Shown: positions 25,038-63,980, counted from the stretch's first letter. The stretch is 64,000 nucleotides of DNA from Candidatus Binatus sp. (GCF_030646925.1 NZ_JAUSKL010000124.1:48298-112297), one strand, 5' to 3'. The notes: a model not told the origin generated them from the sequence alone. Made by a program: numbers and translations.

Positions 25038-26146
25038 CAACGACCTCCGGCCGCGGCGGCGGATTCGCTCGCGCCCTGAAAATGCGGCATCACTTCTTTC
25101 GCAAAAAGGCGGAGGCTGTTGAGCACCTGTTCTTGCGGGATCGTCTCGAGCGCATTCAGCAGGAAGTTCACGCGATCGACGCCGCAGGCTTCCCACTTCT
25201 TGAGTTCGCGCACGAGTCGCGCAGGATTGCCGATCGCGATACCCTCGGGCGCGCCCGACGCGTCGCCGGGGCCCGATGCTTCCTGCCGGAGTGACGGGAG
25301 CAAGCCGAGCGACGGATACGATTTGCTCGGATACGCCTCGCGCGCGGCGAGCAACTGCGACGCGAGATAATTGAAGGTGCCGGTCATCCGTTTGCCGACC
25401 TTCACGCCTACCGCATCGTCCTCATGGCAATAGAGGAAGTTAACCGTCGAAACATTTTCATTAACGAAGTCGCCGACCGGAGTGCAGTTGCGAATGATCT
25501 TGCGATAGCGCTTGACCTTCTCATCCTGCTCCGCGAAACCGCCGAAGGTCAGCCCAAGACTGCCCATCCCGCGCTCGGCGGCGTCGATTTCAGTACCCGG
25601 ACTGGTGACCGCGACCCACAGCGGCGGATGCGGTTTCTGATACGGCTTGGGCACAATCGTGCGCTGCGGCATCGACCACGAACGTCCCTGATACGAGTAA
25701 CGTTCCTGGGTCCACATCTTGGGGAGGCAATGGACGAATTCGTCCCAGGTTTTTTTGGTTTCGTCGGGGCTCGCGCGGAAGCCGCCGAGTTCGGTCCAGG
25801 TCGCGGAGCGTCCGGTGCCTACTTCGAGGCGGCCACCCGACAGGATATCGAGCACGGCGGTGCGCTCAGCGATTTTGATCGGATGATTGAACTCGGGGAC
25901 GCATACGACGATGCCGTGACCAACGCGCATCTTCTTGGTCTTCATCGCGCAGGCGGTGAGGAACAATTCAGGCGCCGGGCAGTGAGAATATTCTTCGAGG
26001 AAGTGATGCTCGACGGCCCACACCTGATCGTAGCCAAGGGTGTCGGCGAGCGCGACTTGTTCGAGGCAATTGTCGTAAACCGTTTTTTCAGTTTCGCGCC
26101 CCCAGGGTCGCGGTACCGAGATTTCATAGAAGAGACCGAATTTCAT
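25037..26146 (-). CDS. LLM-class flavin-dependent oxidoreductase
   Basis: MKFGLFYEISVPRPW..., VWAVEHHF, PKPYQKPHPPLW motifs; GGAGG RBS. Confidence 0.85.
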   Translation of the reverse strand: MKFGLFYEISVPRPWGRETEKTVYDNCLEQVALADTLGYDQVWAVEHHFLEEYSHCPAPELFLTACAMKTKKMRVGHGIVVCVPEFNHPIKIAERTAVLDILSGGRLEVGTGRSATWTELGGFRASPDETKKTWDEFVHCLPKMWTQERYSYQGRSWSMPQRTIVPKPYQKPHPPLWVAVTSPGTEIDAAERGMGSLGLTFGGFAEQDEKVKRYRKIIRNCTPVGDFVNENVSTVNFLYCHEDDAVGVKVGKRMTGTFNYLASQLLAAREAYPSKSYPSLGLLPSLRQEASGPGDASGAPEGIAIGNPARLVRELKKWEACGVDRVNFLLNALETIPQEQVLNSLRLFAKEVMPHFQGASESAAAAGGR

Positions 26147-26221
26147 GGGTTTACCTCCACATACCGGTCGTTTAGCGCAATCTTGGGCGGAACGAAAGCC
26201 CCGCGTGAGAGGAAAGAAACG

Positions 26222-26333
26222 GAATTCGAAACCCCTCACGGGTTTCGAGCTTCCTGGGGCATCGCGAAGCCGACTTCGGGCCGCAGGGCCGAATCGCAAT
26301 AAGATTAAGATGCGCGCTACGCGCTGTTAATAG
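26222..26333 (+). repeat. structured intergenic repeat element family A, copy 1 (three hairpins)
   Basis: cgaaacccctcacgggtttcg hairpin, gccgacttcgggccgcagggccgaatcg, gcgcgctacgcgc hairpin; ~95% identical to copy 2. Confidence 0.6.
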
Positions 26334-33855: not shown

Positions 33856-34809
33856 ATGGCAGTTAGACTTAACGTGGGCGATATCGCGAGCGTGGTGCAG
33901 GCGGCGATCGGCGGGCAAGCTGTGACGCAGGTGCTCGAAGGCGATCGCCGCTTCGATTTGGTCGTGCGATGGAAGCCGCAGTATCGCCAGAGTCTCGACG
34001 CGATCCGCGATATCCGCGTGAACGTTCCCGGCGGCGGGCAGGCGCCGCTCGCGCAGGTAGCGAGCATCCAGAATGCTGCGGGAGCATCGTTCATTTATCG
34101 TGAGCAGTTGGAGCGCTACGTGCCGGTGCGATTCGCGGTGCGCGATCGCGATCTGCAGAGCTCGGTCCGTGAAGCCAAGGCCAAGGTCGCGAAAAATGTA
34201 CACCTGCCTGAGGGCGTCCATCTTGAATGGGCTGGTGAATACGGCGAGCTTCAGGAGGCGAATCGGCGCCTCGCAGTGGTAGTGCCGTTCGCGCTGTTGT
34301 TGATCGCGGGCGGGCTCTACGGCGCGACCAATTCGTTGATCGATACCTTCATCATCATGGTGCAGATTCCGGTCGCTTGCTTGTGCGGAATCGTCGGATT
34401 GGTCATCACAGGCACGCCGTTCAGCGTGTTGGCGGCGGTGGGATTCATTTCGATTTTCGGAATCGCGGTGAGAGATGGAATCCTGCTGAGCTTTTACATC
34501 CGGCAACTGTGGGAGCAGGGGCGTCCGTTTGCCGAGGCGATCGTGCTCGGATCGGATCGGCGGTTGCGCGCGACGATGATGACCGATCTAGTCGACGCGC
34601 TCGGACTGTTGCCGGCGGCGATATCGACGCGAATCGGCGCGCAGACGCAGCGTCCGCTGGCGATCGTCGTAATCGGCGGCGCGCTCGCGATCATGGTGCT
34701 CACGCGAATGCTGCAGCCGGTGCTGATTTTCCTGTGTCATCGAAAGCTGCGACTGGCGGACAACGCGGCGCGGCCGACGCAGGTCTTCGAGCCCGGTACG
34801 CTCGCGTAA
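33856..34809 (+). pseudogene. C-terminal ~315-aa fragment of a CzcA/CusA-type heavy-metal RND efflux pump
   Basis: Matches the C-terminal TM bundle of HME-RND proteins; N-terminal ~700 aa absent (cytochrome c and clpB lie upstream). Confidence 0.7.
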
Positions 34810-36649: not shown

Positions 36650-37810
36650 CTAGCTCTTCAATTCACGCATCACGCCGCGGCGCGTGACATGGAACTGGCG
36701 CCCGGCCCATTTCACCTTGTTGCTGAACAGGCTGGCGAACCAGACGCCGGTCATCACGAGGTCTTTCATCGGGACCATCCAGAGGTCGCTCAGCAGTTCG
36801 GGCATTTTGACGACGCGCATCACGATCGCGGCAGACATCGCAAGCCGCGCCGCGATCACCAGCACGAAGGCGGCGAATGCGGCGGCGCTGCCACGCGACG
36901 CGGCGAGCAATACGATCGCCCAGAATGGGCCGTGCATCAGGATGGTCGCGATACTGAGCGGACGGACGGTGCGATAAGTGCGGGCCCATCGCAGTTGATG
37001 ATGCCAGAAATCGTTGAAGGTCTTTTCTTCAGCGGCGAGCGTCACGAGCGAACTCGACAGCCTGATTGCGTAGCCGTGCTCGACGGCGAACTTGCCGAGG
37101 TAAAAGTCGTCGGCGAGCAGATCCTTGAGTGCGCGAAAGCCGCCGATCGCCTCCAGCGCGGGACGCTTGATCGCGATCGTCGCGCCGAGTGCATAGTGCA
37201 GCGGCTCGATCGATTCGGCGAGCAGCACCTGCGGCAGAAAATCGGTGTTGATGTAGAGCGCCTCGAAGCGCGAGGCAGTCGTGCCGGTCGGGCGGGCGCG
37301 ATACGCGCAAGTGACGATCGCGGACTTGTCGTCGGAGACCAGTTCGCTGACGATGCGGCGCAGATGATCGCGTTCGACGGATACGTCGGCATCGCTGAGC
37401 ACAATGATGTCGGCTTTTTCGGCGCGATCCGCCATCTTGATCAGCTTGGCGATTTTGCGATTGGTGCAGTTCGGCTCCTCGCCGACCACCAGCGTGATGT
37501 TCGCGAATTGATATCGCTGGCGCAGCGCAACCGGAACTTCAGCCGCGGGATCTTCGTAGTCCGAAACGCCAAAAAAATAATCGAGCCGCGGGTACGCCAG
37601 TTCGAGATAGCTGATTAGATTCGCGGCGAGCGTGGAATGGATCCCGTGGAGCGGCTTCAGAAGCGCGACCTTCGGTGCGATCTTCGGCAAGGCTGGGAGC
37701 GCCGCCGAGCTGCGGCTGGCGAATTTGATCGCGGCATGGGTCGCCACGATGTAGTAGCCGATCGAAACGGCTACCCCGACCGCCGATAGTATCAGCACGA
37801 TGCTAATCAC
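36650..37810 (-). CDS. hpnI: hopanoid-biosynthesis-associated glycosyltransferase HpnI (GT2, ceramide-glucosyltransferase-like)
   Basis: GT2 fold motifs, N-terminal TM, located directly downstream of hpnJ. Confidence 0.75.
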   Translation of the reverse strand: MISIVLILSAVGVAVSIGYYIVATHAAIKFASRSSAALPALPKIAPKVALLKPLHGIHSTLAANLISYLELAYPRLDYFFGVSDYEDPAAEVPVALRQRYQFANITLVVGEEPNCTNRKIAKLIKMADRAEKADIIVLSDADVSVERDHLRRIVSELVSDDKSAIVTCAYRARPTGTTASRFEALYINTDFLPQVLLAESIEPLHYALGATIAIKRPALEAIGGFRALKDLLADDFYLGKFAVEHGYAIRLSSSLVTLAAEEKTFNDFWHHQLRWARTYRTVRPLSIATILMHGPFWAIVLLAASRGSAAAFAAFVLVIAARLAMSAAIVMRVVKMPELLSDLWMVPMKDLVMTGVWFASLFSNKVKWAGRQFHVTRRGVMRELKS

Positions 37811-37908
37811 GTGCTTTTCGCCGCGGCTGCAAAACCGCGGATCCCTTCAGGCTGTGGATCGTCTTGAGCAGCGTACACAGTAACGAGCCCAAGCGCAGTT
37901 TGGCCGGG

Positions 37909-39354
37909 TCAGACCGCGGCCTGCTGCATCTGATGCCGTCGTTGGCGCATCGTTGAAAAGAACTGCCGGCCTTCCTTCAGGAGCCGCTTCGATTCCTCGA
38001 CCGAAGTAAGCATCTTCTTTACGGATTTGAAAATGTAGCGCGGGCGAAAATAGAAGCTGCGATAGAAGCGCTCGACCGCGCCGTAAATCTCGTCACTGCT
38101 GAGACCGGGGTAAGTAATCGTGCACTTCTGATAGCCCGATTCGTCGAGCAGCGGGTCGACGGCGAGAAAGCCGTTCTTGGTAACGTAGTCGAACAGTTCG
38201 GTGCCCGGATACGGCGAGGCGAGCGAGACCTGGATTGTTTCGCAATCCATCTCGCGCGCGAATCGAATCGATTCCTCGATTGTTTCCTTGTTCTCGCCGG
38301 GCAGGCCGAGGATAAAGGTGCCGTGAATCAGGATGCCGATTTCGCGGCAATCCTTGGTGAAGCGCCGCGCGCGATCGATGCCGACGCCCTTTTTGATGTT
38401 CTTCAGAATCTGCGCGTTGCCCGATTCGTAGCCCACCACGAACAGCCGCAGGCCGCCGTCTTTCATCACCTTGAGCGTTTCGTAATCGACGTTGGCGCGC
38501 GAGTTGGTGGACCAGGTGATGTTGAGCGGCTTCAGCAACTGCGCGATTTTGCGCGCGCGCGCCGGGTCCGCGGTGAACGTATCGTCATCGAAGAACAGTT
38601 CCTTCATCCTGGGGAACTTGGACCGCATCGCCGATACTTCCTCGAACACGTTCTCGGGACTGCGCACGCGATAGCGATGCCCCTGGGTCACCTGCGGCCA
38701 CAGGCAGAACGTGCATCGCGCGGGGCATCCGCGCCCGGTGTACATCGAGACGTATGGGTACTGGCAGTAGGGGCTGTTGTATTTCAGATAGTCGAGGTTT
38801 TTTTCGTAAACCTCGGTGACGAACGGCAACTGGTCGAGTTCCTCGTCGGTGAGCGACGGACGATCGGGATTGTTATGCAGCACGCCATTCTTCTGATAGC
38901 TGATGCCGCCGATCGTGCTCCAGTCGCGGCCTTGCGCCACTTCGAGCATCGAGTAGTCGAACTCCTTGCGGCCCGCGATATCGATCGCCGAAGAAAGCTT
39001 CAGCACTTCTTCTGGCCGCGCAGTCGGATGCCCCCCGACCATCGCGATGATCGCGTTCGGATTGGCGGCCTTGATTGCTTCCGCGGTGCGCGCGTCCATT
39101 CGGAGCGACGGCGTTGAGGTATGAAGCACGACCAGGTCGTAGTTCTTCGCCTCATTAATCGTCATATCGACGGTGTAGTCGTGCGGAGGCGCGTCCAGCA
39201 GCCGCGCGCCGGGAATCATCCCGGCCGGATATGCGAGCCAAGTCGGATACCAGAAGGACCAAACTTCGCGAGTGGCCTGGTAACGAGAGCCTGCGCCGCC
39301 GTCGAAGTCGTCGTAGGAGGGCGGATTCAGGAAGAGAGTCTTCATCACATCCAT
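37909..39354 (-). CDS. hpnJ: hopanoid-biosynthesis-associated radical SAM protein HpnJ (B12-binding)
   Basis: MKTLFLNPPSYDDFDGGAGSRYQATREVWSFWYPTWLA hallmark N-terminus; CPARCTFC radical SAM cluster. Confidence 0.9.
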   Translation of the reverse strand: MDVMKTLFLNPPSYDDFDGGAGSRYQATREVWSFWYPTWLAYPAGMIPGARLLDAPPHDYTVDMTINEAKNYDLVVLHTSTPSLRMDARTAEAIKAANPNAIIAMVGGHPTARPEEVLKLSSAIDIAGRKEFDYSMLEVAQGRDWSTIGGISYQKNGVLHNNPDRPSLTDEELDQLPFVTEVYEKNLDYLKYNSPYCQYPYVSMYTGRGCPARCTFCLWPQVTQGHRYRVRSPENVFEEVSAMRSKFPRMKELFFDDDTFTADPARARKIAQLLKPLNITWSTNSRANVDYETLKVMKDGGLRLFVVGYESGNAQILKNIKKGVGIDRARRFTKDCREIGILIHGTFILGLPGENKETIEESIRFAREMDCETIQVSLASPYPGTELFDYVTKNGFLAVDPLLDESGYQKCTITYPGLSSDEIYGAVERFYRSFYFRPRYIFKSVKKMLTSVEESKRLLKEGRQFFSTMRQRRHQMQQAAV

Positions 39355-39522
39355 AAGTTGAGCATACTCCGGCAGCCTGTCCGAGTGGTTAGGCGGACTA
39401 TATCGACCGCAAGTCATGAAGGCAAGATTGCCCGAAAATTTTGAGATTAATGGATGTTTAGTGGATCATACGGGCCGTTTTTCGGTGCGTCGGGCGGCTC
39501 GACAAAGGTCGGGACTAGTTAA

Positions 39523-41319
39523 TTAGTTAATCAGGCGCGAGGCGCGTGTAGGGTATCGCGCGCCCAGCAGGTCTGTGGCGGCAGCGGTCGACGCGCTCAG
39601 CCGATGGCGCAGGATCGCGCGCTTCTTGCCTTCCGACGCGATCAAATCGAAAGCGCCGAGCCGCTCCTTGAGCCGCGCCAGTTCCGGCGCGTCAATCACG
39701 AGCACGGTACTCCCAGGGCGTTCCCACAATTCGAGCAATTGCAGGTCGTTGTTGAAGAACCAATCGGCAGTGTCGGCCGCATGGCGCGCGCCGAAATCGA
39801 GTTCGCTTTTCGGGCCCACCAGGATCACGCGGCGTCCGGTATAAAAGGCGAGCGACTGCACGTAGCGGTGATAGCAGATAAGCCGCGCGTCGGGGGCGCG
39901 TGCGGCGACTGCGCGCGCGAGGCTTGCATACGAGCGGAGTGATTCGGTTTCGAGTCGCACCCATCCGCCGGCGATCAGCGCCGATGCGAGCGTGAGCGTG
40001 AGCGCGACCAGGCCGGCTCCGCGGCGGCGACGCAGGAAAATCGCGGTGGTGACGCCGCCCCCGATCAGCAGCACAGCGCCGATCAGGAACATCGCCGGGC
40101 GCGCGGCCATCACGTAAGGCGTGCGAAATTGAGGCGCAAGGATCGCGGCGACGATCACGCCCGCGCCGAACAGCATCAGCAGCGGGCCGCTTTCGAGCAG
40201 GATTCGCGAATCGGGCGGACGATGAGCGGCGCGGGAGTCGGGCGCCGGCCATGCGCAGGAGATCAAGCCGTCGGCGATGAGGATCGCGAGCGGAGGAATC
40301 GCCGGCAGGATGTACGGAATGAGCTTGGCGCTCGCGCATGAGAATGCCACCAGCGTCACCATCGCGGCGGTCAGGCAGAAGGTGCGCGCAGGATTTTTTT
40401 GCGCGTCGCGCCAGGTCATGAACGGCACCAGCATCGACCACGGGATCAATCCCAGCGCGAGCACGGGCAGATAAAAATAGATCGGTTCGGTGTGGCTGTA
40501 GCTGGAATCGAAGATGCGCCGGAGGTGCTCGCCGACGAAATAGAAGTCGAAAAATCCCGGTTCCATAATCGTTATCGCGACGAACCACGGCAGAGCGATC
40601 GCGACGGTAATCGCGAGGCCCGCGAAAGCGCGGAATTTTCCGAGCGCCCCGCGCAGTTCGCCGCGCCACGCGAGAAACGCGAGCATCGAAAGAATCGGCA
40701 GCGCGACGCCGACGGGTCCCTTGGCCAGCACTGCGAGGCCCATCGCGGCGTACGCGATCCAGCACCATCGCGAGCCCGCGTCCCCCCGCCAATGAAGAAA
40801 GAGCGCGAAGTTGGCGATGGTCACCAACGCGGTGAGCAGCATGTCGGTGGTGAGGACCTGCGCCATCACGGCGTAAATCGGGGTGGTCGCGAGGATCGCG
40901 CTCGCGAGAATCGCGTGGCGGCGGCCGAACGTGCGCAGCGCGAAGAAGTAGGTCGCGAGCACGCCAGCGAGCGCGGACATCGCGACCGTGAATCGCGCCG
41001 CAAATTCGGTGAGGCCGAAAACGGCGAATGACAGCGTCGTCAGCCAATACAGCAGCGGAGGTTTTTCGACGTAAGCGACGTAGTTGAGATGCGGGATGAT
41101 TTTGCTGCCGCCGCGGAGCATCTCTCGCGCGATTTCCGCATAGCGGCCTTCATCCGGCTCCCAGAGCCCATACGAGCCGAGATGAAAGAAGAACACCGCG
41201 ATCGAAAGAGCCAGGATCGCAGCAACGTCGTAGGCGATGGGGAACGATTGCGACGAGGATACGCCGGACTGCGAATCAGATGCGGTCGCGGCGGCGGGAG
41301 TGATTGCGATCTCGGACAC
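39523..41319 (-). CDS. GT39/GT83-family membrane glycosyltransferase (ArnT/PMT-like)
   Basis: Multi-TM N-terminal domain with DEGRYAEIAREM catalytic-loop motif typical of ArnT/PMT enzymes. Confidence 0.75.
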   Translation of the reverse strand: MSEIAITPAAATASDSQSGVSSSQSFPIAYDVAAILALSIAVFFFHLGSYGLWEPDEGRYAEIAREMLRGGSKIIPHLNYVAYVEKPPLLYWLTTLSFAVFGLTEFAARFTVAMSALAGVLATYFFALRTFGRRHAILASAILATTPIYAVMAQVLTTDMLLTALVTIANFALFLHWRGDAGSRWCWIAYAAMGLAVLAKGPVGVALPILSMLAFLAWRGELRGALGKFRAFAGLAITVAIALPWFVAITIMEPGFFDFYFVGEHLRRIFDSSYSHTEPIYFYLPVLALGLIPWSMLVPFMTWRDAQKNPARTFCLTAAMVTLVAFSCASAKLIPYILPAIPPLAILIADGLISCAWPAPDSRAAHRPPDSRILLESGPLLMLFGAGVIVAAILAPQFRTPYVMAARPAMFLIGAVLLIGGGVTTAIFLRRRRGAGLVALTLTLASALIAGGWVRLETESLRSYASLARAVAARAPDARLICYHRYVQSLAFYTGRRVILVGPKSELDFGARHAADTADWFFNNDLQLLELWERPGSTVLVIDAPELARLKERLGAFDLIASEGKKRAILRHRLSASTAAATDLLGARYPTRASRLIN

Positions 41320-41361
41320 GGAGAGGAAGTTTAACGCGCCGCGGCGGTGGCGCGAAATCGA

Positions 41362-43071
41362 TCAATAGCCGACGGCGCCGCCGCCTTTGCGCTGATCGAA
41401 CGCGCCACGATAGTTCCCCGGCTCGATCGTGAGCGCGCCGACCGCGCCGAGCGACGGCGCCACTTTGATCTTGTAGCCCATTTCCTCGAGCGCGACGCGC
41501 GTCGCCGCGGGCATCGACTCCTCGACGATCACTACGTCCGGGACGGCCTGCTCGTGGATGCGCGGTTCGTCAACTGCATGGGCCGCATCGAGATGGAAGT
41601 CGAGGACATTCAGCGTGACCTGCAGCACGCCACTGATGATCGTCGGACCGCCGGAGCCGCCGGTGGACATCACCGGGACATTATTTTTGGTGACGATAAT
41701 CGGCGTCATCGAGGAGAGCGGGCGCTTGCCCGGCCGGATCTCGTTGGCGCGCTCGCCGGCCAGGTGATACGCGTTCGGCACGCCCGGCGCGATCGCGAAA
41801 TCATCCATCTCGTCGTTGAGCAGCAGGCCAAGCGCCGGCACGCTGATCAGCGCGCCGAACACCGTGTTGGTGGTGGTCGTCAGCGCGACCACGTTGCCAT
41901 CCTTGTCGGCGACCAGCAGGTTGGTGGTGCCGTGATCGTGCGCGGCCGGAGTATCGGGCGGCGGCGCCTTGCGATGCAGCGCGCGGTCACGCAACTCGCC
42001 GATATGCCGGTCCGAGAGCAGCTTGCCGATTTCAACGCCGACAAATGCCGGGTCGGCATACTGTGCGCGATCGATGAAGCCCTGGCGCATCACCTCGATC
42101 AGGCGCGCGAGATACGGCGGCGAATCGACGCCCAGACCCGCCAGACGGCCTCCCTCGAGCATCCCGAGCATCTCGAGCACGACGCCGCCCGACGACGGCG
42201 GCGGCATCGCCACGACGTCGTAGCCGCGGTACTGGCGGCGGATCGGACTCCGCCAGATGGGCCGGTAGTTGGTCAGGTCGTTGGCGGTGATCAGCCCGCC
42301 ATGCTCCTTCATGAACGACACGATCTGCGCGGCGACTTCACCGTGGTAAAAATTTGCGACCGGATCGTCGCCGAGCCGCTTCAGCGTCGCGGCAAGTTTC
42401 TTCGCGTAGATGGTCTCGCCGGCTTTGGCGGGCGCTCCGTCGGACTTGACGAACACTTCGCGCATGCCGGGATCGGCATTCAGCTTGGGCAACATGTGCG
42501 CAATCTCGCCGGCCAGATGCGGATTCACGGCGAAACCGTTCTCCGCGAGTTTCTCCGCCGGCGCCGCGATCTGCTGAAACTTCATGGTGCCGAAGCGCCT
42601 GAGCGCTGCGTCGATGCCGGCGATCTCACCGGGCACCGCGACCGCCAGGATGCCGTCCTTGGACAATTCCGGGTCGGGCTTGCCGTTGCGAATGTACATA
42701 TCGGGCCGCGCCATCAGCGGTGCGGTCTCGCGATAATCGAGCGCGTAGAAGCCGTGGTTCTTCGCGATGTAAATCAGCATGAAGCCGCCGCCGCCGATAC
42801 CGCATGACGCCGGATTCGTAACGCCGACCGCGAGCGCAGTCGCGACTGCGGCGTCCACCGCGTTGCCGCCCTGCTTGAGAATCTCGATACCGGCGTGGGC
42901 TGCGTCGTCGCTTTCCGAAACGACCATCCCATGGGTGCCGACGGCGGCGCGATTCGCCTGCGAATCGGCGGCGAAGCCTGCGGGCGGCCAGAAAATCGCG
43001 GACAGGAAAACGATCAGAACTGTTGCGCGACAATGCGCCAGTCTGAGATGGAAAGCGAAACTCGAACGCAT
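41362..43071 (-). CDS. ggt: gamma-glutamyltransferase
   Basis: Signal peptide; autoprocessing site ...DHGTTNLLVADKDGN; family-wide conservation. Confidence 0.9.
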   Translation of the reverse strand: MRSSFAFHLRLAHCRATVLIVFLSAIFWPPAGFAADSQANRAAVGTHGMVVSESDDAAHAGIEILKQGGNAVDAAVATALAVGVTNPASCGIGGGGFMLIYIAKNHGFYALDYRETAPLMARPDMYIRNGKPDPELSKDGILAVAVPGEIAGIDAALRRFGTMKFQQIAAPAEKLAENGFAVNPHLAGEIAHMLPKLNADPGMREVFVKSDGAPAKAGETIYAKKLAATLKRLGDDPVANFYHGEVAAQIVSFMKEHGGLITANDLTNYRPIWRSPIRRQYRGYDVVAMPPPSSGGVVLEMLGMLEGGRLAGLGVDSPPYLARLIEVMRQGFIDRAQYADPAFVGVEIGKLLSDRHIGELRDRALHRKAPPPDTPAAHDHGTTNLLVADKDGNVVALTTTTNTVFGALISVPALGLLLNDEMDDFAIAPGVPNAYHLAGERANEIRPGKRPLSSMTPIIVTKNNVPVMSTGGSGGPTIISGVLQVTLNVLDFHLDAAHAVDEPRIHEQAVPDVVIVEESMPAATRVALEEMGYKIKVAPSLGAVGALTIEPGNYRGAFDQRKGGGAVGY

Positions 43072-48484: not shown

Positions 48485-49702
48485 ATGCGATACAGCGCAC
48501 TCAACGACCTCCGCGTAATCGATCTGACGCATTTCATCGCGGGCCCTTACGCGACCAAACTGCTCGCCGACATGGGCGCCGACGTGATCAAGGTCGAGCC
48601 GCCGTGGGGCGAAGGCGGGCGCAAACTCGGACCAAATCGGAATGGCGATGCGCACGACGAGTTATCCGATCGCGGCGGACTGTTCGCGTTTCTGAATCTC
48701 AACAAACGCGCGATCACGCTGAATCTCAAACACGATCGCGGCCGCGAGTTGCTCGCGCGCCTTCTCGGCGGCGCCGATCTGCTGGTCGAGAACTTCGCGC
48801 CGGGCACGCTCGCCTCGTTCGGACTAGCGCCCGAAGAACTGATCGCGAAATTTCCGAAGCTCTCGGTGATCTCGATTTCCAATTTCGGGCAGGACGGGCC
48901 TGAGCGCGGCGGCGCGTTGAATGACCTGGTGCTGTTCGCGCGCGGCGGATGGACTTTTCCGGTCGGCGAGCGCGACCGCGCGCCGCTGACGCCGCCCGGC
49001 TCGCTGGCGCAATACGTCGGTGCGGTTTACGGGGCGATCGGCGCGTTGCAGGCAATCGCGGCGCGCGACGCCGGCCTCGGTCGCGGCCAGCACGTCGATA
49101 TCTCGCTGCTGGAGGCGACCGTCGCGACCATGATCTACGAAACCGTCTCGTTCCAGTATTCGGGAATCGTGCGCGGCCGCGAGGGTAAACGATTTGCGGT
49201 CGGGCCGTTCATGATCGTGACGCTCAAATGCAAGGACGGTTACGCCGGGCTGCATTGCGTGACCGACAAGCAGTTCGAGGGGCTTTGCGATCTGATGGGA
49301 CGTTCCGAACTGCTCGCCGATTCGCGCTTTCGCACCGCGCTGGATCGCTACACCAACAACGATGCGCTGCTGAAGATCGTCGAGGAGTTTTTTATCGATC
49401 GCGATCGCAAGTGGCTCTATGGCGAGGGACGGCGGCGCGCGATTCCGCTGGTGCCGATTCCGAGCGTCGCCGAGGTGATGGATTGGGAACAGACCAGGGC
49501 GCGCAACTATTTCGAGACGATCGATGATCCGGTGCTCGGAAAAATCCGCGTGCCGGGAACGCCGCTCCGCCTGACGTCGCATCGCGCGGAGAACTCGCGG
49601 CCGGCGCCGCGGCTCGGCGAACACAACCAGGAAATCCTCGCGGCGAATCTCGGACTGAGTCGCGCCGAAATCGACGCGCTCAAACAATCGGGCACGATAT
49701 GA
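48485..49702 (+). CDS. CoA-transferase family III (CaiB/BaiF)
   Basis: LRVIDLTHFIAGPYATKLLADMGADVIKVE N-terminal signature. Confidence 0.85.
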   Translation: MRYSALNDLRVIDLTHFIAGPYATKLLADMGADVIKVEPPWGEGGRKLGPNRNGDAHDELSDRGGLFAFLNLNKRAITLNLKHDRGRELLARLLGGADLLVENFAPGTLASFGLAPEELIAKFPKLSVISISNFGQDGPERGGALNDLVLFARGGWTFPVGERDRAPLTPPGSLAQYVGAVYGAIGALQAIAARDAGLGRGQHVDISLLEATVATMIYETVSFQYSGIVRGREGKRFAVGPFMIVTLKCKDGYAGLHCVTDKQFEGLCDLMGRSELLADSRFRTALDRYTNNDALLKIVEEFFIDRDRKWLYGEGRRRAIPLVPIPSVAEVMDWEQTRARNYFETIDDPVLGKIRVPGTPLRLTSHRAENSRPAPRLGEHNQEILAANLGLSRAEIDALKQSGTI

Positions 49703-50949
49703 AAACGATCTTTGACGGCAAGCTTAGAGTTCTCGACCTCGCGATGGGATGGGCCGGTCCGCTCGTCGGCCAGATGTTCGCCGAGATGGGCGCGGAAGTG
49801 ATCAAGGTCGAGGACACGCAGCATTTCGACTGGTGGCGCGGCTCGCTCTCGATAGCGGCGCCGGAGATGCAGCCGATCGAGCGTTCATCGCCCTTCAACA
49901 CAGCCAATCGCGGCAAGCGCGGAATCACGCTCGATCTCGCGAGTCCGCGCGGAATCGAAGTCCTGCAGCGGCTGATAAAAGTTTCGGACGTGCTGATCGA
50001 AAACTACAGTCCGCGCGTGATGGAGAAGCTCGGACTGCCGTACTCCGCGGTCGCCGCGATCAATCCGCGGATGATCATGATCTCGATGCCGTCGTTCGGC
50101 AGCGACGGCCCCGAATGCGAGACGCGCGGCTACGGCAATACGGTCGAGGCGATGGCTGGCGTCACCGGCCTGATGGGTTATCACGACTCCGAGCAGCGCT
50201 ACACGCTGAGCAATGCGCTTGGCGATCCCGTCGGCGGATTGCACGGAACTTTCGCGTTGCTCGCGGCGCTGCATGAGCGCCAGCGCACTGGCCGCGGGCA
50301 GTGGGTCGAGCTCGCGCAGGTTGAAGCGCTGATTCCGTTCGTGACGCGCGCGATGCTCGAGTACCAGTTCACGGGCGAGGCGCCGAAGCCGCGCGGCAAT
50401 CGGCATCCTGAGCACGCGCCGCATGGAATCTATCGCGCGGCTGGCGAGGAAGCGTGGATCGCGATTGCCTGCGAGAGCGATGCGCAGTGGAAAAATCTCG
50501 CGATCGCGCTGTCACTCGGTCATCTGGCGAATGACCCTCGCTTTGCCGACGCGCGAAGCCGCAAAGCCAACGAAGATGCGCTCGATGCGGAACTGTCGCG
50601 CGCGATTGCCGAAGCGGACGCTGACGAATGCGTCGCGCGGCTGCGCAATGCGGGCGCGCTCGCGGCGCCGGTTAATTCAGCGCCCGCCGTGATGAGCGAT
50701 CCGCAGTTGCAGAGCCGCGAGTATTTCGTCGCGATCGATCGCGCCGTCGTGGGAACGCATCTGTATCCGGGTGCAGTTGCGAATCTGCCCGAGACTCCGC
50801 TCCGCGATGACGCTCCTGCGCCGCTGCTCGGCGAGCACAATCGCGCCGTATTCAGCGAGGTGCTCGCGATGAGCGATGCTGAAATCGCGGAGCTCGAGGA
50901 AGCCGGCATCATCGGCTCTGCGCCGCGGCAATATCGCGCCGCGTCGTGA
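49699..50949 (+). CDS. CoA-transferase family III (CaiB/BaiF), second copy, start overlaps previous stop (ATGA)
   Basis: LRVLDLAMGWAGPLVGQMFAEMGAEVIKVE. Confidence 0.85.
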   Translation: MKTIFDGKLRVLDLAMGWAGPLVGQMFAEMGAEVIKVEDTQHFDWWRGSLSIAAPEMQPIERSSPFNTANRGKRGITLDLASPRGIEVLQRLIKVSDVLIENYSPRVMEKLGLPYSAVAAINPRMIMISMPSFGSDGPECETRGYGNTVEAMAGVTGLMGYHDSEQRYTLSNALGDPVGGLHGTFALLAALHERQRTGRGQWVELAQVEALIPFVTRAMLEYQFTGEAPKPRGNRHPEHAPHGIYRAAGEEAWIAIACESDAQWKNLAIALSLGHLANDPRFADARSRKANEDALDAELSRAIAEADADECVARLRNAGALAAPVNSAPAVMSDPQLQSREYFVAIDRAVVGTHLYPGAVANLPETPLRDDAPAPLLGEHNRAVFSEVLAMSDAEIAELEEAGIIGSAPRQYRAAS

Positions 50950-58261: not shown

Positions 58262-58675
58262 TTACCTGGCGTTTTTCAGCGGAGCTTCAGGCGTCGCGAT
58301 TTCATTCGCGCGAATCGTGAGCAACTGCAGCGCCTGTCCGAGATCGAGTTCGCTGTACTTTTGATTCGAGTATAGCTCGTCGAGTTGCTTGACCGCCTTA
58401 TCGGAAGACACGTCATTCATCGAAAGCTGACCCGACAATTGATGGATGATCTTGCGTGCGCCCTTCCAGTGGAACAGATCGGCCGCGATGTTGAGGCCGT
58501 CGAGCTTGCCGATACTCACGCGCATCGCGTCCGAGTACCCGTTGACGTACCCGTCCTTGGCGGCGGTGTTGAGCCGATTCCAGAAACTCCCATCGTGATT
58601 AGCTTTGGGTGAGGCGAACGCCACTGCCCAGCTCGCGAGGAAACCGAGCAACACGCCGGAAGCAAATTTCTTCAT
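58262..58675 (-). CDS. secreted hypothetical protein
   Basis: Signal peptide MKKFASGVLLGFLASWAVAFA. Confidence 0.45.
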   Translation of the reverse strand: MKKFASGVLLGFLASWAVAFASPKANHDGSFWNRLNTAAKDGYVNGYSDAMRVSIGKLDGLNIAADLFHWKGARKIIHQLSGQLSMNDVSSDKAVKQLDELYSNQKYSELDLGQALQLLTIRANEIATPEAPLKNAR

Positions 58676-58977
58676 TTCGCGATGTTCCTCCCTCCGTGGG
58701 GAATTCTGTACCAAAAATACGCCGGTAACACAAAAAACATTTCTGCCATCGATGGCGTCAGCGGAGAGGTTTCTCTTTGAATTCCAGTCTGAGGGCGCGC
58801 CTACCCGGCTCGAAGCCGCCGCGACCACCCGATCCGCCACCCACCACGCCTGGTACTCTAGAATAATCCAGCACGCCGGTAAATAGCTGGAAAATCGAGT
58901 CAGGCGGGCTCTGCGGGAACGCCTTGCGAGGATATAATCGGGATTGAAGGACCGCGCCCGGCGATGCCATCCTCACT

Positions 58978-60120
58978 TTGGCGCGCGATAAGCCCATGTC
59001 GATCTACCAACACGTACTCACGTTTATCCACAGACCGCGCGCGGAGTCATTCGAGCAGCTTGCGATCGAGGTATTTCGCCATCAGTTCGCTTCGGTCACC
59101 GCGTATCGCAATTACTGCCTTGAGCTTGGTGTTGATTCCTCTGCGGTAAAGCGCATCGACGATATCCCCGCGGTCAGCAACGTCGCGTTCAAGTACGTCG
59201 ATTTGTCCGACGAATCGAGCGCGCAATCACGCGACGCGCTCACATTTCTAACGAGTGGCACGACCCAGGGGCGCGAGCGGCGCGGACGCCACGCCGTGCC
59301 GAGGCCTGAAATTTATCGTGCGTCGGCAATCGCGCATTTGCGGACGATGCTGTTTCCCGACGATCGCAAAACCGCGATGCTCGCGCTGCATCCCACCGCG
59401 GACGCGATGCCGGAGTCGTCGCTGGCGACGATGATCGGATGGTGCATCGCGGAGTTCGGTAGCGGAAGAACTTTCAGCGCGGCCTCACGCGAGGGCGTCG
59501 ATCTGAAAGGCGCGATGGATTTTCTCGACGACGCAGAAACGCGACGCGAACCGGTGTGCATCATGGGAACGACGGCGGCATTCGCGGCGCTCAATTCGGC
59601 GGCTCGCGAACGCGGCGTGAATGTTTCGCTGGCGGCGGGCTCGCGCCTGATGGATACAGGCGGTCTCAAGGGCCAGGCGATGCCGCTTTCCGCGGCGGCA
59701 GTGATCCAGAACGCGCAGGCAAATTTCGGAATCGCGCCCGCGATGGTCATCAACGAGTACGGGATGACCGAACTGTGTTCGCAGCTTTACGACGCGACCG
59801 AGTTCAATTGCCGCGACGCCGCGACTTCGCGCGAACGATTCAAGCTGGCGCCGGCGTGGCTCCGCGTCAGCGCGCGCAACCCCGCTACGCAACGGCGCGT
59901 CGATGACGGCGAACCCGGACTGCTGACGTTCTTCGATCTGGCGAATGTCGGCTCAGTCTCTGCCGTGATGAGCGAAGATGTCGGCATCGTCGAGGGCGAT
60001 CGTGTACGCGTGATCGGCCGTTCCGCGATGGGTGCGGCGCGAGGATGCGCGCTCGCGATCGGTCAGTTCGCAAAAGCCGCCGCGCCGGACGGTCGAGAAA
60101 TTGCGAGGCCGGCGCAATGA
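58978..60120 (+). CDS. LuxE-like acyl-protein synthetase
   Basis: Parallels LuxE along full length: YRNYC, IDDIPAVSNVAFKY, FLTSGTT, C-terminal RGCAL. Confidence 0.8.
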   Translation: MARDKPMSIYQHVLTFIHRPRAESFEQLAIEVFRHQFASVTAYRNYCLELGVDSSAVKRIDDIPAVSNVAFKYVDLSDESSAQSRDALTFLTSGTTQGRERRGRHAVPRPEIYRASAIAHLRTMLFPDDRKTAMLALHPTADAMPESSLATMIGWCIAEFGSGRTFSAASREGVDLKGAMDFLDDAETRREPVCIMGTTAAFAALNSAARERGVNVSLAAGSRLMDTGGLKGQAMPLSAAAVIQNAQANFGIAPAMVINEYGMTELCSQLYDATEFNCRDAATSRERFKLAPAWLRVSARNPATQRRVDDGEPGLLTFFDLANVGSVSAVMSEDVGIVEGDRVRVIGRSAMGAARGCALAIGQFAKAAAPDGREIARPAQ

Positions 60121-61412
60121 CGAAGTCCGCGCTCGAGACTGAGGCGAATCGCATCGGCGAACCGATCGAGATGGTCGCGCCGCTTTCGTCGGCGCCGTCG
60201 CTCGCAGACATCGATGCCACCCGCGTGGCGCTCCGCGATGCGTCCCGCAAACCAATCGCGCCATCTCGAATCGCCGATGCGATCGCGCGCGCAATCTCTC
60301 TTTGGCGCGATCGACAGCATCCGCGGCGCGTCGATGCGGTCGCGCGAATCACGCGCAACGCCGGATTCTCACTCCCGCTGATGAACGATTCGATCGACGC
60401 CTTGTTGCGGCCGTTCACGCGCGAAGCGTTGGCGACGCTCGCCGAACGAGTCACTCGGCGCGGCGCGAGGAAGCAGGCCGAGTTGCTCGGTTTCATCATG
60501 GCGGGCAACGTCGCTGGTGCGGGATTGCACGAAGTTGCGATCGCGCTCGTTGCCGGCGCGACGCTGCTGGTCAAGACCGCGTCCAATGAGCCGATTTTTT
60601 TTGCCGAGTTTGTCCGCACGCTCGCGGATATCGATCCTGAAGTTGCGTCGCGAATCGCGGTTTTCTCCTGGCCTCGAGATCGCATCGATCTTACGGCGGC
60701 GCACGTAGCCAACTGCGATCTCATCGTCGCTTATGGTGACGACGCGACGATCGCCTCGATTGCGGCTCGCAACCTGATCGGTTTCGGCAGTCGCGTCAGC
60801 GGCGCGGTGGTCGCCGGAAGCGCGGCCATATCCTCGCAGATCGACACGATGACAGATTTGCTCGCGCGCGACGTCGCGTACTTCGAACAGCTCGGCTGCC
60901 TTTCGCCGCATCATATTTTCGTTGTCACGCCGCGGCCGGAAATCGCGAGCAAGTTTGCAAATGAAATGTCCGTCGCGTTCGAGCGATTGTCGAAATCGAT
61001 GCCGCCTGCGAAAATCCCCCTGATCGACGCGGCTAAAATTTTAAGCGTCCGCGAGAATGCGCGATGGCGCCGCATTTCCGGTGATACGATTCAGCTCATG
61101 GAAGGTCCGCAACTCGGATGGACGGCGATTTTCGATCCTGATGCAGCGTTTTCGGTATCGCCAGGGTTTCGCACGGTCGTCATCAGCGCCGTTCGCGACT
61201 GGCAGGATCTTCGGTTCCGGCTGCTTCCAGCGAAAGGTCTTATTGAAGCGTTTGGATTTTCCGGCAATCAATCCGAGTTGGCGGATTTTCGCGCGCTCGC
61301 GGGCGAACTCGGCATTTCGTACGTCGCGCAAGTCGGCGAGATGCAGTCGCCGCCACTGGATTGGCCACATGGCGGCGGCGCGTTTCTCGACGCTATGATC
61401 GGAGTGCGATGA
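60117..61412 (+). CDS. LuxC-like acyl-CoA reductase (aldehyde-forming)
   Basis: ALDH-like fold with EQLGCLSPHHIFV catalytic-Cys region as in LuxC; start overlaps luxE stop (ATGA). Confidence 0.7.
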   Translation: MTKSALETEANRIGEPIEMVAPLSSAPSLADIDATRVALRDASRKPIAPSRIADAIARAISLWRDRQHPRRVDAVARITRNAGFSLPLMNDSIDALLRPFTREALATLAERVTRRGARKQAELLGFIMAGNVAGAGLHEVAIALVAGATLLVKTASNEPIFFAEFVRTLADIDPEVASRIAVFSWPRDRIDLTAAHVANCDLIVAYGDDATIASIAARNLIGFGSRVSGAVVAGSAAISSQIDTMTDLLARDVAYFEQLGCLSPHHIFVVTPRPEIASKFANEMSVAFERLSKSMPPAKIPLIDAAKILSVRENARWRRISGDTIQLMEGPQLGWTAIFDPDAAFSVSPGFRTVVISAVRDWQDLRFRLLPAKGLIEAFGFSGNQSELADFRALAGELGISYVAQVGEMQSPPLDWPHGGGAFLDAMIGVR

Positions 61413-62626
61413 CTGAACTCCACGAACTGTTTCTCAAGCGGCTGGCGCAAACTTCGGACGCGCCGATCGCGCTCGAAATTTCACGCGCCGAGGGATGCTG
61501 GCTCGTCGCGGCGGACGGCAGGCGCTATCTCGATTTGATTGCCGGCATCGGCGTGTCGGCGCTCGGCCACGGCCATCCCAACGTCATCGCCGCGATTGAA
61601 GCGCAGGCGCGCCGCCATCTGCACGTGATGGTCTATGGCGAATACGTGATCGAGGCCCAGGTGCAACTCGCGCGGCGACTGACTGAGCTGCTGCCGACAA
61701 AACTCGAACGCGTTTACTTCACGAATAGCGGCGCCGAGGCAATCGAAGGCACGCTCAAGGTCGCGCGCAAAGCGACCGGACGCGAAGCATTCGCGGCCTT
61801 TGACGGTGCGTATCATGGCGACACGATGGGGGCGCTCGCGCTTGCGGGAAATCCCGCGTTTCGCGCGCCCTTCGGCAATTTGCCCGGTCCCGTGCGTCAT
61901 CTTCCGTTCGGCGATTCCGCCGCGCTCGATCAGATCGATTCGACGATCGCCGCCGTTGTGATCGAACCCGTTCAAGCCGAAGGCGGCGTGCGAATACCGG
62001 CGGCTTCGTTCATGCGATCGTTGCGCGATCGATGCGATCAGGTTGGCGCGCTGCTTGTTTTCGACGAAGTGCTGACCGGCTTCGGGCGCACCGGCAAGCT
62101 TTTCGCTCTCGAACATTTCGGCGTCGTGCCAGACATCATCGTGATGGCGAAAGCGCTCGGCGGCGGGATGCCGCTCGGCGCGTTCTGCGGCAGCGACGAT
62201 CTGATCGGCACATTGTCGCACGATCCACCGCTCGGACACCTCACGACTTTCGGCGGCCATCCACTGTCGTGCGCCGCCGCGCTCGCCTCGCTCGAAGTGA
62301 TCGTGGCGGACGACCTGAGCGCGCGCGCCGCCATGATCGGCGCGGATCTCGCTCGGCGCTTGCGCGAAATCAACGCGCCCGAGATGACGGCGATTCGCGC
62401 AATCGGATTGCTCATCGGGATCGAATTTGCCGAGGCGCAATTCGCGCATCGTTTCGTCGCGGAGACAATCTCGCGCGGCGTGATCGTCAACTGGACGCTG
62501 AATGCCGACAAGGTGGTCCGACTCGCACCGCCGCTCACGATCGAAGCCGCGGAAATCGATTTCGCAGTTGCGAGGATGATCGAAGCCCTTGATGCGACGC
62601 GGCAGGAACGTCAAGTTGTCCGGTAG
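61409..62626 (+). CDS. class III (PLP fold type I) aminotransferase, acetylornithine/omega-aminotransferase-like
   Basis: GIGVSALGHGHP, DEVLTGFGRTGKLFA (Lys in MAKALGGGMPLGA region); start overlaps luxC stop (ATGA). Confidence 0.85.
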   Translation: MTELHELFLKRLAQTSDAPIALEISRAEGCWLVAADGRRYLDLIAGIGVSALGHGHPNVIAAIEAQARRHLHVMVYGEYVIEAQVQLARRLTELLPTKLERVYFTNSGAEAIEGTLKVARKATGREAFAAFDGAYHGDTMGALALAGNPAFRAPFGNLPGPVRHLPFGDSAALDQIDSTIAAVVIEPVQAEGGVRIPAASFMRSLRDRCDQVGALLVFDEVLTGFGRTGKLFALEHFGVVPDIIVMAKALGGGMPLGAFCGSDDLIGTLSHDPPLGHLTTFGGHPLSCAAALASLEVIVADDLSARAAMIGADLARRLREINAPEMTAIRAIGLLIGIEFAEAQFAHRFVAETISRGVIVNWTLNADKVVRLAPPLTIEAAEIDFAVARMIEALDATRQERQVVR

Positions 62627-62675
62627 TAGTTTGCGGTCCTCCGAGGCGGGGAATTCCAATGGCGGAAGGGCAGCG

Positions 62676-63980
62676 ATGAACGTCAGGGAAGTTGAAGCGC
62701 GGTCGGCGCCGAGGTTCCCGGACGTCTTGCGCACCACTTCAGAGCTGGAGTGGACCAAAGACGACGAGGAATCCCTCCGCACGATCAAGCTCGGCACCGC
62801 GCTCGGCGTGCTGATGCTGGTCGCGTATCTCGAGTACGATCTGCGCATCCGCGGACACGGGGGCATCGGCGCGACCTTTCACTGGATCATCCTCGGCGGC
62901 ACCGCGGTGTTTTTCGGCACCCTTTGGACGCGCGCATTCCGGCGCCAGTGGAAGCTGTGGACGTTTTCGATCTCCTTATTCCTGATGTGGATGTTCACGA
63001 TCATCAGCGCCTCGACGCGCGATCCCGAGTCGCGCTTCATCACGATGGCGCTCTGCCCGATGGCGACCGCGTCATTCGTAAACTGGGGACCACGCTGGCA
63101 GTTTTCGATGGCGGCGATTTCGCTCGCGACCTTCAGCGCCGCGCAATATTTCGTGCCGATCGAGAACCCGTTCATCATGTACCAGTGGCTGGGATTGGTG
63201 GCCGCGCTCGGAATCGCGCAGTTCACCGCGATCTACATCGATCGCTATCGCCGCCGGCTGAGCCGGCAAGTCGAGGATCTCGAGGAGGCGGCGCGCTTTC
63301 GCCAGAACCAAATCGCCACCATGGCGCATGACATACGGAGCCCGGTCGCCGCGCTCAGCGGCTACGTCAATCTGCTGGAAGAGGATCACGCTGATGCAAA
63401 GGAGCGCGCCGACGTCCTCGGGCGAATCGGCTCGACCGCGTGGTACATGGACCTGCTCGTCAGCAACGTGCTGGATTTGTACCAGGTGCAGGAACGCAAC
63501 ATCGTGGCGTCTCCGATCGATCTGGATCCGAATCTTCTGCTCGCCGAGATAACCGCGGATTGCGCGGTGCAGGCGCGCCGCCGTCATCTCTCGCTCCGCA
63601 CCGAATTTTCGAGCCTCCCGCCGTGCCGGCTCGATCCGCGCCATTTCGAGCGCATCGTGAGAAATCTGATCGCGTTTGCGATCGTTCGTTCCGTCACCGA
63701 CGAAGTGGTCCTGCGAACCGCGCTGCGCGGCCGCTGGATCGTCGTCGAGGTCACTGACGACGGCCCCTCGCCGACTCCGGACGAGCTTGCCACGCTGTTC
63801 GATGCGCCCAGCAGCGACGGCCGGAGAGGCCGTGCGCGAGGTCTGGGATTGTACATCGCGCGGGCGATGGCGCGAGCGGCGGGCGGACGCATCGAGGCGC
63901 GCTACGCCGGCGCGCGCGGGATCACACTGACCGCCGAGTTGCCGATCGAAGCGGCGCCGCGCCAACGTCAACTGGATTAA
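62676..63980 (+). CDS. membrane sensor histidine kinase
   Basis: ~6 TM N-terminal sensor, H-box MAHDIRSPVAALSGY, HATPase G-boxes (GLGLYIARAMARAAGGRIE). Confidence 0.8.
   Translation: MNVREVEARSAPRFPDVLRTTSELEWTKDDEESLRTIKLGTALGVLMLVAYLEYDLRIRGHGGIGATFHWIILGGTAVFFGTLWTRAFRRQWKLWTFSISLFLMWMFTIISASTRDPESRFITMALCPMATASFVNWGPRWQFSMAAISLATFSAAQYFVPIENPFIMYQWLGLVAALGIAQFTAIYIDRYRRRLSRQVEDLEEAARFRQNQIATMAHDIRSPVAALSGYVNLLEEDHADAKERADVLGRIGSTAWYMDLLVSNVLDLYQVQERNIVASPIDLDPNLLLAEITADCAVQARRRHLSLRTEFSSLPPCRLDPRHFERIVRNLIAFAIVRSVTDEVVLRTALRGRWIVVEVTDDGPSPTPDELATLFDAPSSDGRRGRARGLGLYIARAMARAAGGRIEARYAGARGITLTAELPIEAAPRQRQLD

Follow-up and report, generated by a model that had tools for sequence, protein, structure and literature searches.

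A LuxE-LuxC-aminotransferase module of Candidatus Binatus: well-supported acid-to-amine chemistry and a possible role in preQ1 formation

Proteins related to LuxC and LuxE of luminous bacteria have been described outside bioluminescence. Non-luminous LuxE/LuxC pairs encoded in O-antigen and flagellin glycosylation islands of Aeromonas and Enterobacteriaceae modify a small acyl group (PMC7874193). In Streptomyces, TabE, which falls in the LuxC cluster of the aldehyde dehydrogenase (ALDH) superfamily, acts with TabA to make the fatty amine of tambjamine (bioRxiv 10.1101/2025.08.11.669332), and Pseudoalteromonas TamH is reported to form a fatty amine for tambjamine as well (PMC9594044). Here we report on a LuxE-like protein, a LuxC-like protein and a class III pyridoxal phosphate (PLP)-dependent aminotransferase that are encoded side by side in Candidatus Binatus sp., an uncultured soil bacterium of the Binatota, on a contig from which we studied a stretch of 64,000 nucleotides (GCF_030646925.1, NZ_JAUSKL010000124.1:48298-112297) to which we refer as the window. 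The reading of the three genes as a module that leads from an acid through a thioester and an aldehyde to an amine is well supported. Our best single guess as to its product, put forward tentatively, is that it makes 7-aminomethyl-7-deazaguanine (preQ1) from 7-carboxy-7-deazaguanine (CDG), bypassing QueC and QueF.

Four genes occupy the plus strand between positions 58996 and 63980, encoding in this order the LuxE-like protein, the LuxC-like protein, the aminotransferase and a histidine kinase (Table 1). The first gene likely starts at the ATG at 58996, in agreement with the public gene call, and not at the TTG at 58978. As the initial annotation of this stretch had claimed, the enzyme genes overlap by ATGA at both junctions: the stop codon TGA of the LuxE-like gene (60118-60120) overlaps the ATG of the LuxC-like gene (60117-60119), and the TGA of the latter (61410-61412) overlaps the ATG of the aminotransferase gene (61409-61411). 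These overlaps, read directly from the sequence, bear out the proposed single operon, and the three enzyme genes are one translationally coupled unit. All Pfam assignments of the four proteins exceed the curated cut-offs, which are 24.9 bits for LuxE (PF04443), 21 bits for LuxC (PF05893) and 30.5 bits for Aminotran_3 (PF00202), and the three enzyme family names given initially stand. The checks that had been proposed along with them, profile searches with PF04443 and PF05893 and synteny of the trio elsewhere, both came out in favour of the assignments.

The LuxE-like protein was initially described as similar to LuxE over its full length, and indeed its residues 19-357 match positions 38-388 of the 391 in the PF04443 model. 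Its best match in the Protein Data Bank (PDB) is the LuxE chain 7XC6_E (E=2.6e-12); the chains of 7XC6, the Photobacterium LuxC-LuxE complex, are the sole solved structures that match the first two gene products by sequence. The protein is an adenylate-forming enzyme without the C-terminal ANL subdomain. Its C-terminus reads ...VIGRSAMGAARGCALAIG..., and the cysteine predicted to carry the acyl group is Cys351, in the C-terminal motif GR-x6-ARGCAL, which corresponds to the acyl-cysteine motif TRxxKGCxLS at the C-terminus of LuxE (PMC9157457). RGCAL is invariant across 51 Binatia orthologues, and outside Binatia 56 sequences share GR...RGC. In LuxE, Lys238 and Arg355 form a catalytic pair; the Lys of DTGGLKG in the Binatus protein aligns with the Lys of GGWK, which is Lys238 (PMC9157457), while the Arg of its IGR, a presumed counterpart of Arg355, lies outside the alignment.

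The LuxC-like protein is 100% identical to an NCBI entry named 'MAG: acyl-CoA reductase [Candidatus Binatus sp.]', where MAG stands for metagenome-assembled genome. Its Cys261, in FEQLGCLSPHH, aligns with the catalytic Cys of LuxC in YDQQACFS and is invariant, including in 46 diverse sequences. The AlphaFold model of the protein (predicted local distance difference test score, pLDDT, 76.7) has 7XC6_A as its top Foldseek match in the PDB (E=5.7e-15), at an identity to LuxC of ~15%. In LuxC, a C-terminal segment of ~30 residues closes a hydrophobic cleft of 40 angstrom (PMC9157457). The Binatus reductase seems to lack this segment, because the protein ends soon after the conserved W-x-H-G-G, with 13 residues remaining, and the model has no extended C-terminal element, only one short helix beyond residue 421; the alignments to 7XC6_A end at residues 301-373, short of mapping the cleft residues. 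Both proteins score far below the equivalog models of the fatty-acid enzymes, the LuxE-like protein with 61.5 bits against a cut-off of 550 for the long-chain-fatty-acid--protein ligase (NCBIfam NF052244) and the LuxC-like protein with 43.7 bits against 750 for the long-chain fatty acyl reductase (NF052251). By their motifs the two are members of the LuxE and LuxC families; on these scores they are not predicted to share the function of the fatty-acid enzymes.

The aminotransferase is nearest in sequence to AcOAT/LysJ and to putrescine aminotransferase, and AKALGGG and FDEV, the motifs of its PLP lysine and of the Asp that contacts the pyridine nitrogen, align with those of 1VEF, 7NN1 and YgjG. 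ArgD-type NCBIfam models all score below their cut-offs (373 bits against 457 for the best, an acetylornithine transaminase model, and 356 against 410 for another), and the NCBI model of prodigiosin PigE matches as well. The Arg of the GRT motif in GabT/OAT/AcOAT enzymes binds the (alpha-)carboxylate of the substrate. Where ArgD and LysJ have F(H/S)GRT, alignments to 1VEF and 7NN1 place YHGDT in the Binatus enzyme, with Asp for Arg, and AYHGDT is invariant in 58 of 58 Binatia orthologues; the enzyme has lost the Arg that binds an amino-acid carboxylate. The DEVQTG of 1VEF and 7NN1 reads DEVLTG in Binatus. Aminotransferases found with LuxE-LuxC fall into two subfamilies. Type A, which includes the Binatus enzyme, carries [FY]HGD[TS] and H-x-MVYGE; its members share 48-61% identity with the Binatus protein and are encoded beside LuxE-LuxC in Binatia, NC10, L074, L086-L103, L157 and L165 (L numbers denote loci). 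For those from NC10 and four other lineages the identity is 48-58%. Type B carries YHGL[TS], is ~37% identical to type A and is found in Verrucomicrobia-like lineages and L159.

From the families to which they belong and the catalytic residues that they conserve, it is very probable that the three enzymes convert an acid to an aldehyde and then to a primary amine. The LuxE-like enzyme would adenylate a free carboxylic acid with ATP and hold the acyl group as a thioester on its own C-terminal Cys, and its C-terminal arm would pass the acyl group to the catalytic Cys of the LuxC-like reductase, which would free the aldehyde with NAD(P)H. The aminotransferase would turn the aldehyde into R-CH2-NH2, probably with glutamate as amino donor, since it still has the Glu/Arg pair found in enzymes that use 2-oxoglutarate.

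To see in which company the trio is encoded elsewhere, we gathered gene neighbourhoods on public contigs and, in addition, at 80 loci in metagenomes, with flanks of up to 10 kb; the metagenome scan used an alignment subset of 13 sequences, and a profile search for distant relatives gave 3030 representatives. LuxE, LuxC and the aminotransferase are encoded together in 65 genome loci, all from Binataceae-type MAGs, in most of which the kinase comes next; PPDK, HtrA and the small gene 5′ of the operon are retained in these loci as well. This synteny is vertical conservation of the whole region, which alone says little on function. After dereplication to 60 LuxC clusters (20 from Binatia and 40 others), all 20 Binatia clusters and 18 of the 40 others had an aminotransferase gene no further than ~4 kb from the pair, and for this reason the arrangement exceeds chance. 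Clustering of neighbouring open reading frames (ORFs) likewise placed class III aminotransferases as the commonest neighbour family of the pair: they occur at 21 of 83 loci, whereas generic ABC ATPases occur at 14. Gene order varies between lineages (AT-E-C, E-C-AT and E-C-x-AT, where AT is the aminotransferase gene), and two aminotransferase subfamilies were recruited. Taken together, these findings are strong evidence that the three enzymes act together. There are also five natural LuxE-LuxC fusion proteins of 700-820 aa (L070 8001-10436, P0131, P0138, P0144 and P0238). It is on the recurrence of the trio across lineages and on these fusions that the support for an acid-to-amine module rests, and the acid-aldehyde-amine logic of the initial annotation is upheld by a linkage that recurs across phyla.

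Two further contexts are worth recording. One LuxE-LuxC fusion comes from a Phycisphaerae MAG and lies beside an ABC exporter and an aldehyde dehydrogenase. In one large clade (L111, L115, L119, L122, L127, L128, L144, L145 and related loci) an ABC transporter is encoded on the same strand 3′ of luxE-luxC; it consists of an ATPase, a permease and an NMT1/THI5-type binding protein, and no aminotransferase lies nearby. The substrate acid, or a compound from which it is made, may enter the cell through this transporter.

Queuosine biosynthesis is held to be fully solved, through FolE, QueD, QueE, QueC, QueF, Tgt, QueA and QueG/H. The QueE product CDG is a carboxylic acid, and preQ1, the base inserted into tRNA en route to queuosine, is the matching aminomethyl compound and the next free intermediate but one. 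The three chemistries of the module, applied to CDG, would give 7-formyl-7-deazaguanine and then exactly preQ1, and the module would therefore replace QueC, which turns the acid into a nitrile, and QueF, which turns the nitrile into the amine. The placement of the module among housekeeping genes and its core status in Binatia fit a role in tRNA modification. The loss of the carboxylate-binding Arg by the aminotransferase is a further point in favour of CDG.

The case for CDG comes from gene neighbourhoods. In NC10, queG lies 62 nt 5′ of type A aminotransferase-luxE-luxC, and this block of four genes is kept while its flanks differ; the NC10 QueG proteins score 385-389 bits with TIGR00276 (cut-off 200). 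In six Verrucomicrobia-like lineages, whose QueE proteins are 64-79% identical, queE lies directly 5′ of the type B aminotransferase gene, with or without luxE-luxC nearby; these proteins score 281-303 bits with TIGR04349 (cut-off 300) and bear the Joint Genome Institute (JGI) name 7-carboxy-7-deazaguanine synthase. The gap between the two genes is 14-17 nt in L117 and L134, and in L160-162 they overlap or are 5 nt apart. No luxE-luxC lies within 10 kb of the latter; a contig with luxE-luxC only (L121) was recovered from the same metagenome. In L139 and L140, queD, with a score just above its cut-off, lies within ~3.5 kb of the pair. When E. coli QueA, Tgt, QueC, QueD, QueE and QueF were compared with all loci and with the window, only QueE and QueD found matches, none of them in Binatia, and queC, queF, tgt and queA were not found in any locus collected. 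Two separate Verrucomicrobia-like lineages have queE and the aminotransferase gene parted by the insertion of a REP-associated tyrosine transposase (RAYT/Y1_Tnp; L140 2108-2719; L163/L164 6496-7041). A link to phage deazaguanine DNA modification was considered and set aside, because a phage collection gave one weak match (24% identity) and viral contigs gave none.

Several observations weigh against CDG as the substrate. No queuosine gene was found in the 64 kb window or in the 65 Binatia loci. The queE linkage involves the type B aminotransferase, and Binatus has type A, for which the queuosine linkage consists of queG in one phylum only; the five Verrucomicrobia-like clusters are mutually related and do not count as independent observations. 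No Rfam family, preQ1 riboswitches included, reached the gathering threshold in 143 kb covering this operon and the related queG/queE operons, nor did any family, again including the preQ1 riboswitch, appear at E<=5 over positions 58600-59100. Eleven clusters with enough flank have no aminotransferase nearby, and other lineages' pairs have the NMT1/THI5-type ABC transporter beside them. One clade has a protein of ~208 aa with a C-terminal, lipid-binding SCP2 domain encoded right after the type A aminotransferase (L086, L088, L091 at 5885-6511, and L093) and, in five loci, an alpha/beta hydrolase gene 5′; the closest non-Binatia relative has a weak acyl-ACP-thioesterase/4HBT match within its operon (ACP, acyl carrier protein). 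Finally, Binatia form the deepest branch of a neighbour-joining LuxC tree, drawn without support values, and the Binatus and NC10 LuxC-like proteins are 28% identical, which makes the transfer of function to Binatus uncertain. The CDG assignment is drawn from the neighbourhoods of related modules in other phyla and is extended to Binatus by homology only, and we hold it as a possibility that falls somewhat short of even.

The initial annotation had named a long-chain fatty acid as the substrate, with the aldehyde transaminated to a fatty amine. In this reading a long- or medium-chain fatty acid would become an alkylamine that serves as a lipid, a head-group precursor or a signal, much as in the synthesis of the tambjamine tail. 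It is consistent with the use of myristate by the only biochemically characterised LuxE and LuxC (PMC9157457), with the formation of dodecylamine by TabE and TabA (bioRxiv 10.1101/2025.08.11.669332), with the SCP2, hydrolase and thioesterase genes just mentioned, and with the many lipid genes in the window (acyl-CoA dehydrogenase, PlsY and hopanoid genes). For Binatus, however, its basis is distant homology: the equivalog scores miss by an order of magnitude, identity to LuxC is as low as stated above, and the segment that closes the fatty-acyl cleft appears to be missing. Moreover, no ACP, LuxD, thioesterase, fatty acid synthase (FAS), acyltransferase or other fatty-acid gene adjoins the trio in any Binatia locus, the lipid-flavoured neighbours belong to generic families and are limited to one clade, and the coupling of queE to the aminotransferase is left unexplained. 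The long-chain substrate is therefore not supported, and we consider a fatty acid rather unlikely.

We regard as similarly doubtful that the substrate is another small polar acid. This could be a dicarboxylate or amino-acid derivative converted to a diamine or omega-amino acid, in analogy to ArgB/ArgC/ArgD or LysZ/LysY/LysJ, or a pyrimidine carboxylate converted to 4-amino-5-aminomethyl-2-methylpyrimidine for thiamine, and substrates may vary by clade. The kinship of the aminotransferase to AcOAT/LysJ and putrescine aminotransferase points in this direction, a cationic or hydrogen-bond-donating group would be well matched by the Asp that has replaced the carboxylate-binding Arg, and contexts are heterogeneous across the family. 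The clues to thiamine are thiL, two genes 3′ of the module in Binatus, and the NMT1/THI5-family binding protein with its ABC transporter after luxE-luxC in L111, L115, L119, L122, L128, L144 and L145, but these clues are weak, generic or explained by synteny; none of the contexts collected couples the module to an arg, lys, polyamine or ten/thi salvage gene, and the specific neighbours that do repeat are queE, queG and queD. The aminotransferase could also be the ArgD of the organism, or another housekeeping transaminase, in either case hitch-hiking in the operon, with the kinase sensing the product and regulating the operon. Acetylornithine transaminase models are its best NCBIfam matches, the whole Binatia neighbourhood (kinase, PPDK and HtrA) is syntenic, and signal-transduction genes occur near the module in L157, L074 and L070. 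Yet those models all stay under their cut-offs, the Arg that acetylornithine would need is Asp throughout the Binatia orthologues, the same aminotransferase subfamily rejoins luxE-luxC in at least six unrelated contexts, and outside Binatia the proximity of signal-transduction genes is at about chance level, all of which makes this explanation very improbable.

The fourth gene encodes a membrane histidine kinase directly 3′ of the enzyme genes, as the initial annotation had it. It starts 50 nt 3′ of the aminotransferase gene, and its product matches HisKA (47.4 bits) and HATPase_c (51.4 bits), has the H-box HDIRSP and a hydrophobic N-terminal part of ~200 residues that is probably multi-pass. 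Its inclusion in the module did not stand. The kinase gene adjoins the module in most Binatia loci, where the unrelated PPDK and HtrA genes are equally syntenic, and it is not beside the module in NC10, the Verrucomicrobia-like and most other lineages. Since only Binatia show the linkage, and there the entire region is kept in synteny, we left the kinase out of the system; membership is unsupported and we count it as a neighbour. Two-component control of the operon is likewise unsupported, on the same linkage and because no response regulator gene is adjacent in the Binatus locus.

The operon is preceded by genes for a glycyl-tRNA synthetase-like protein, PPDK, a methylisocitrate-lyase-like protein, HtrA protease and a small secreted protein, and in the source contig the kinase gene is followed by thiL and then a CNNM/CorC gene. 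None of the genes adjoining the trio at the Binatus locus encodes an ACP, thioesterase, FAS, luciferase or response regulator. A promoter and terminator scan of the intergenic region upstream of the operon found neither a sigma-70 consensus nor a terminator and was uninformative.

Table 1. Features of the Binatus operon region; positions are counted from the first nucleotide of the window.
Feature	Position	Strand	Basis
LuxE-like acyl-protein synthetase, 374 aa	58996..60120	+	PF04443 63.8 bits
LuxC-like thioester reductase, ALDH superfamily, 431 aa	60117..61412	+	PF05893 145.1 bits
Class III PLP aminotransferase, type A, 405 aa	61409..62626	+	PF00202 352.5 bits
Membrane sensor histidine kinase, 434 aa	62676..63980	+	HisKA + HATPase_c
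Intergenic region, presumed promoter/leader	58841..58995	+	Between divergent small secreted-protein gene and operon

Elsewhere in the window, the initial statement that luciferase genes are absent is right for LuxAB: no luxA/luxB or luxD lies within 10 kb of the pair. It needs amending for the wider family, of which the window has two generic members, luciferase-like monooxygenase (PF00296) genes at a distance of 33-39 kb 5′ of the operon (19917-21356 and 25040-26299, both on the minus strand). Neither has a specific NCBIfam model above cut-off, and as luciferases they were rejected, with LuxA/LuxB model scores of 46-61 bits against cut-offs of 500-600. Hopanoid side-chain genes are found at 36653-43071, all on the minus strand: HpnI (36653-37810; TIGR03472, 316.8 bits against 310) and HpnJ (37912-39417; TIGR03471, 714 against 578), next to an ArnT/PMT_2-type glycosyltransferase (39526-41319) and a gamma-glutamyltranspeptidase (41365-43071). 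They suggest that Binatus makes bacteriohopanetetrol glucosamine or cyclitol-ether hopanoids. The aminotransferase of the operon was considered as HpnO, which makes the hopanoid amine, and this was rejected: no HpnO-type model is among its top NCBIfam matches, HpnI/HpnJ are 20 kb away, and the enzyme is tied to luxE-luxC.

An IS1595-family transposase gene (DDE_Tnp_IS1595 with zinc ribbon; 21813-22601, plus strand) maps to the part of the window that is poorest in GC, a dip at 22-24 kb to 0.518 from about 0.60. A 506-aa ORF with Peptidase_S74 (endosialidase chaperone of tail-fibre type; 14219-15736, minus strand) lies near a tRNA gene (17402-17474, minus strand), and the two may mark a prophage remnant or an integration site. 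A RES-domain protein gene (7122-7664, plus strand) follows a 128-aa ORF without Pfam match, and this pair (6715-7664) looks like a toxin-antitoxin system of RES-Xre type. Tandem family III CoA-transferase genes (48485-49702 and 49699-50949, plus strand) overlap by 4 nt and lie 3′ of GST and acyl-CoA dehydrogenase genes. Of the AcrB/AcrD/AcrF model with its 1021 positions, the ORF at 33856-34806 (plus strand) covers no more than the C-terminal ~290 residues; this is an RND transporter gene that is truncated or has a mis-called start or a frameshift.

A role of the module in the conversion of CDG to preQ1 is apparently unreported: we found no paper in the literature that pairs queuosine or deazaguanine with LuxC/LuxE, and no occurrence of '7-formyl-7-deazaguanine'. 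The module could be a widespread, unrecognised route to preQ1, one that, without orthology to QueC and QueF, takes their place in Binatota, NC10, Verrucomicrobiota and other uncultured phyla, with the first non-lipid LuxCE substrate; this broader proposal we advance with more reserve than the guess about the product. If it is true, organisms scored as queuosine-precursor auxotrophs for their lack of queC/queF would be de novo producers, the scoring of queuosine-pathway completeness in genomes and microbiomes would change, 7-formyl-7-deazaguanine would be a natural metabolite, and the LuxCE 'fatty acid reductase' would be a general carboxylate reductase that several large uncultured phyla use in their core metabolism. 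Should the substrate be a fatty acid, this would hint at as yet unrecognised amino-lipids in Binatia. Whatever the substrate, a compact acid-to-amine cassette that is independent of CoA and ACP and draws on ATP, NAD(P)H and glutamate is of interest for biocatalysis.

Among known systems, the LuxC-LuxE fatty acid reductase (7XC6) shares with the Binatus proteins both families, adjacent genes, a likely complex and the presumed course from adenylation through a thioester on the C-terminal Cys and the reductase Cys to NAD(P)H-dependent release of an aldehyde. The differences are the low identity, the failed equivalogs, the apparent loss of the cleft-closing segment and the absence of luxA/B/D. Gene order in luminous bacteria is C-D-A-B-E and in Binatus E-C, and the aldehyde goes to luciferase in the former and would go to the transaminase in the latter. 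In the glycosylation islands, where Vibrio cholerae RfbN is a further LuxC/LuxE homologue, the pairs are accompanied by ACP, FabG and glycosyltransferase genes; the Binatus module has none of these beside it.

The initial annotation had regarded the combination as not being a characterised pathway, and here it must be corrected: the same chemistry is characterised for tambjamine, in TabE/TabA and in TamH. TabE/TabA, TamH and Serratia PigE lead from a thioester through an aldehyde to a primary amine by a reductase and a class III/omega-transaminase, acting on ACP- or CoA-bound fatty acyl chains in secondary-metabolite clusters; in TamH and PigE the reductase domain is of another kind and forms one protein with the transaminase. 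Unlike these tambjamine and prodigiosin systems, the Binatus module has a self-acylating synthetase of LuxE type that would act on the free acid, and its genes are core and embedded among housekeeping genes. The thioester-aldehyde-amine chemistry is thus already known, and what is seen here is a carboxylate reductase of LuxCE type coupled to a transaminase. A three-step logic from acyl-phosphate through semialdehyde to amine is shared by ArgB/ArgC/ArgD and LysZ/LysY/LysJ, the systems whose ArgD and LysJ the aminotransferase most resembles. There activation is by phosphorylation, whereas in the module it would be by adenylation and thioester formation, with a reductase of another family and an aminotransferase without the carboxylate-binding Arg.

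QueC and QueF, if our best guess is right, would share with the module the substrate, the product and the place between QueE and Tgt. In related lineages the module sits by queE/queD, where queC often sits; canonical queC adjoins queE in ~26% of genomes (PMC13329287). The two solutions have no homology: QueC and QueF take a route through an amide and a nitrile at the cost of 2 ATP, NH3 and 2 NADPH, whereas the module would proceed through a thioester and an aldehyde with 1 ATP, 1 NAD(P)H and 1 glutamate.

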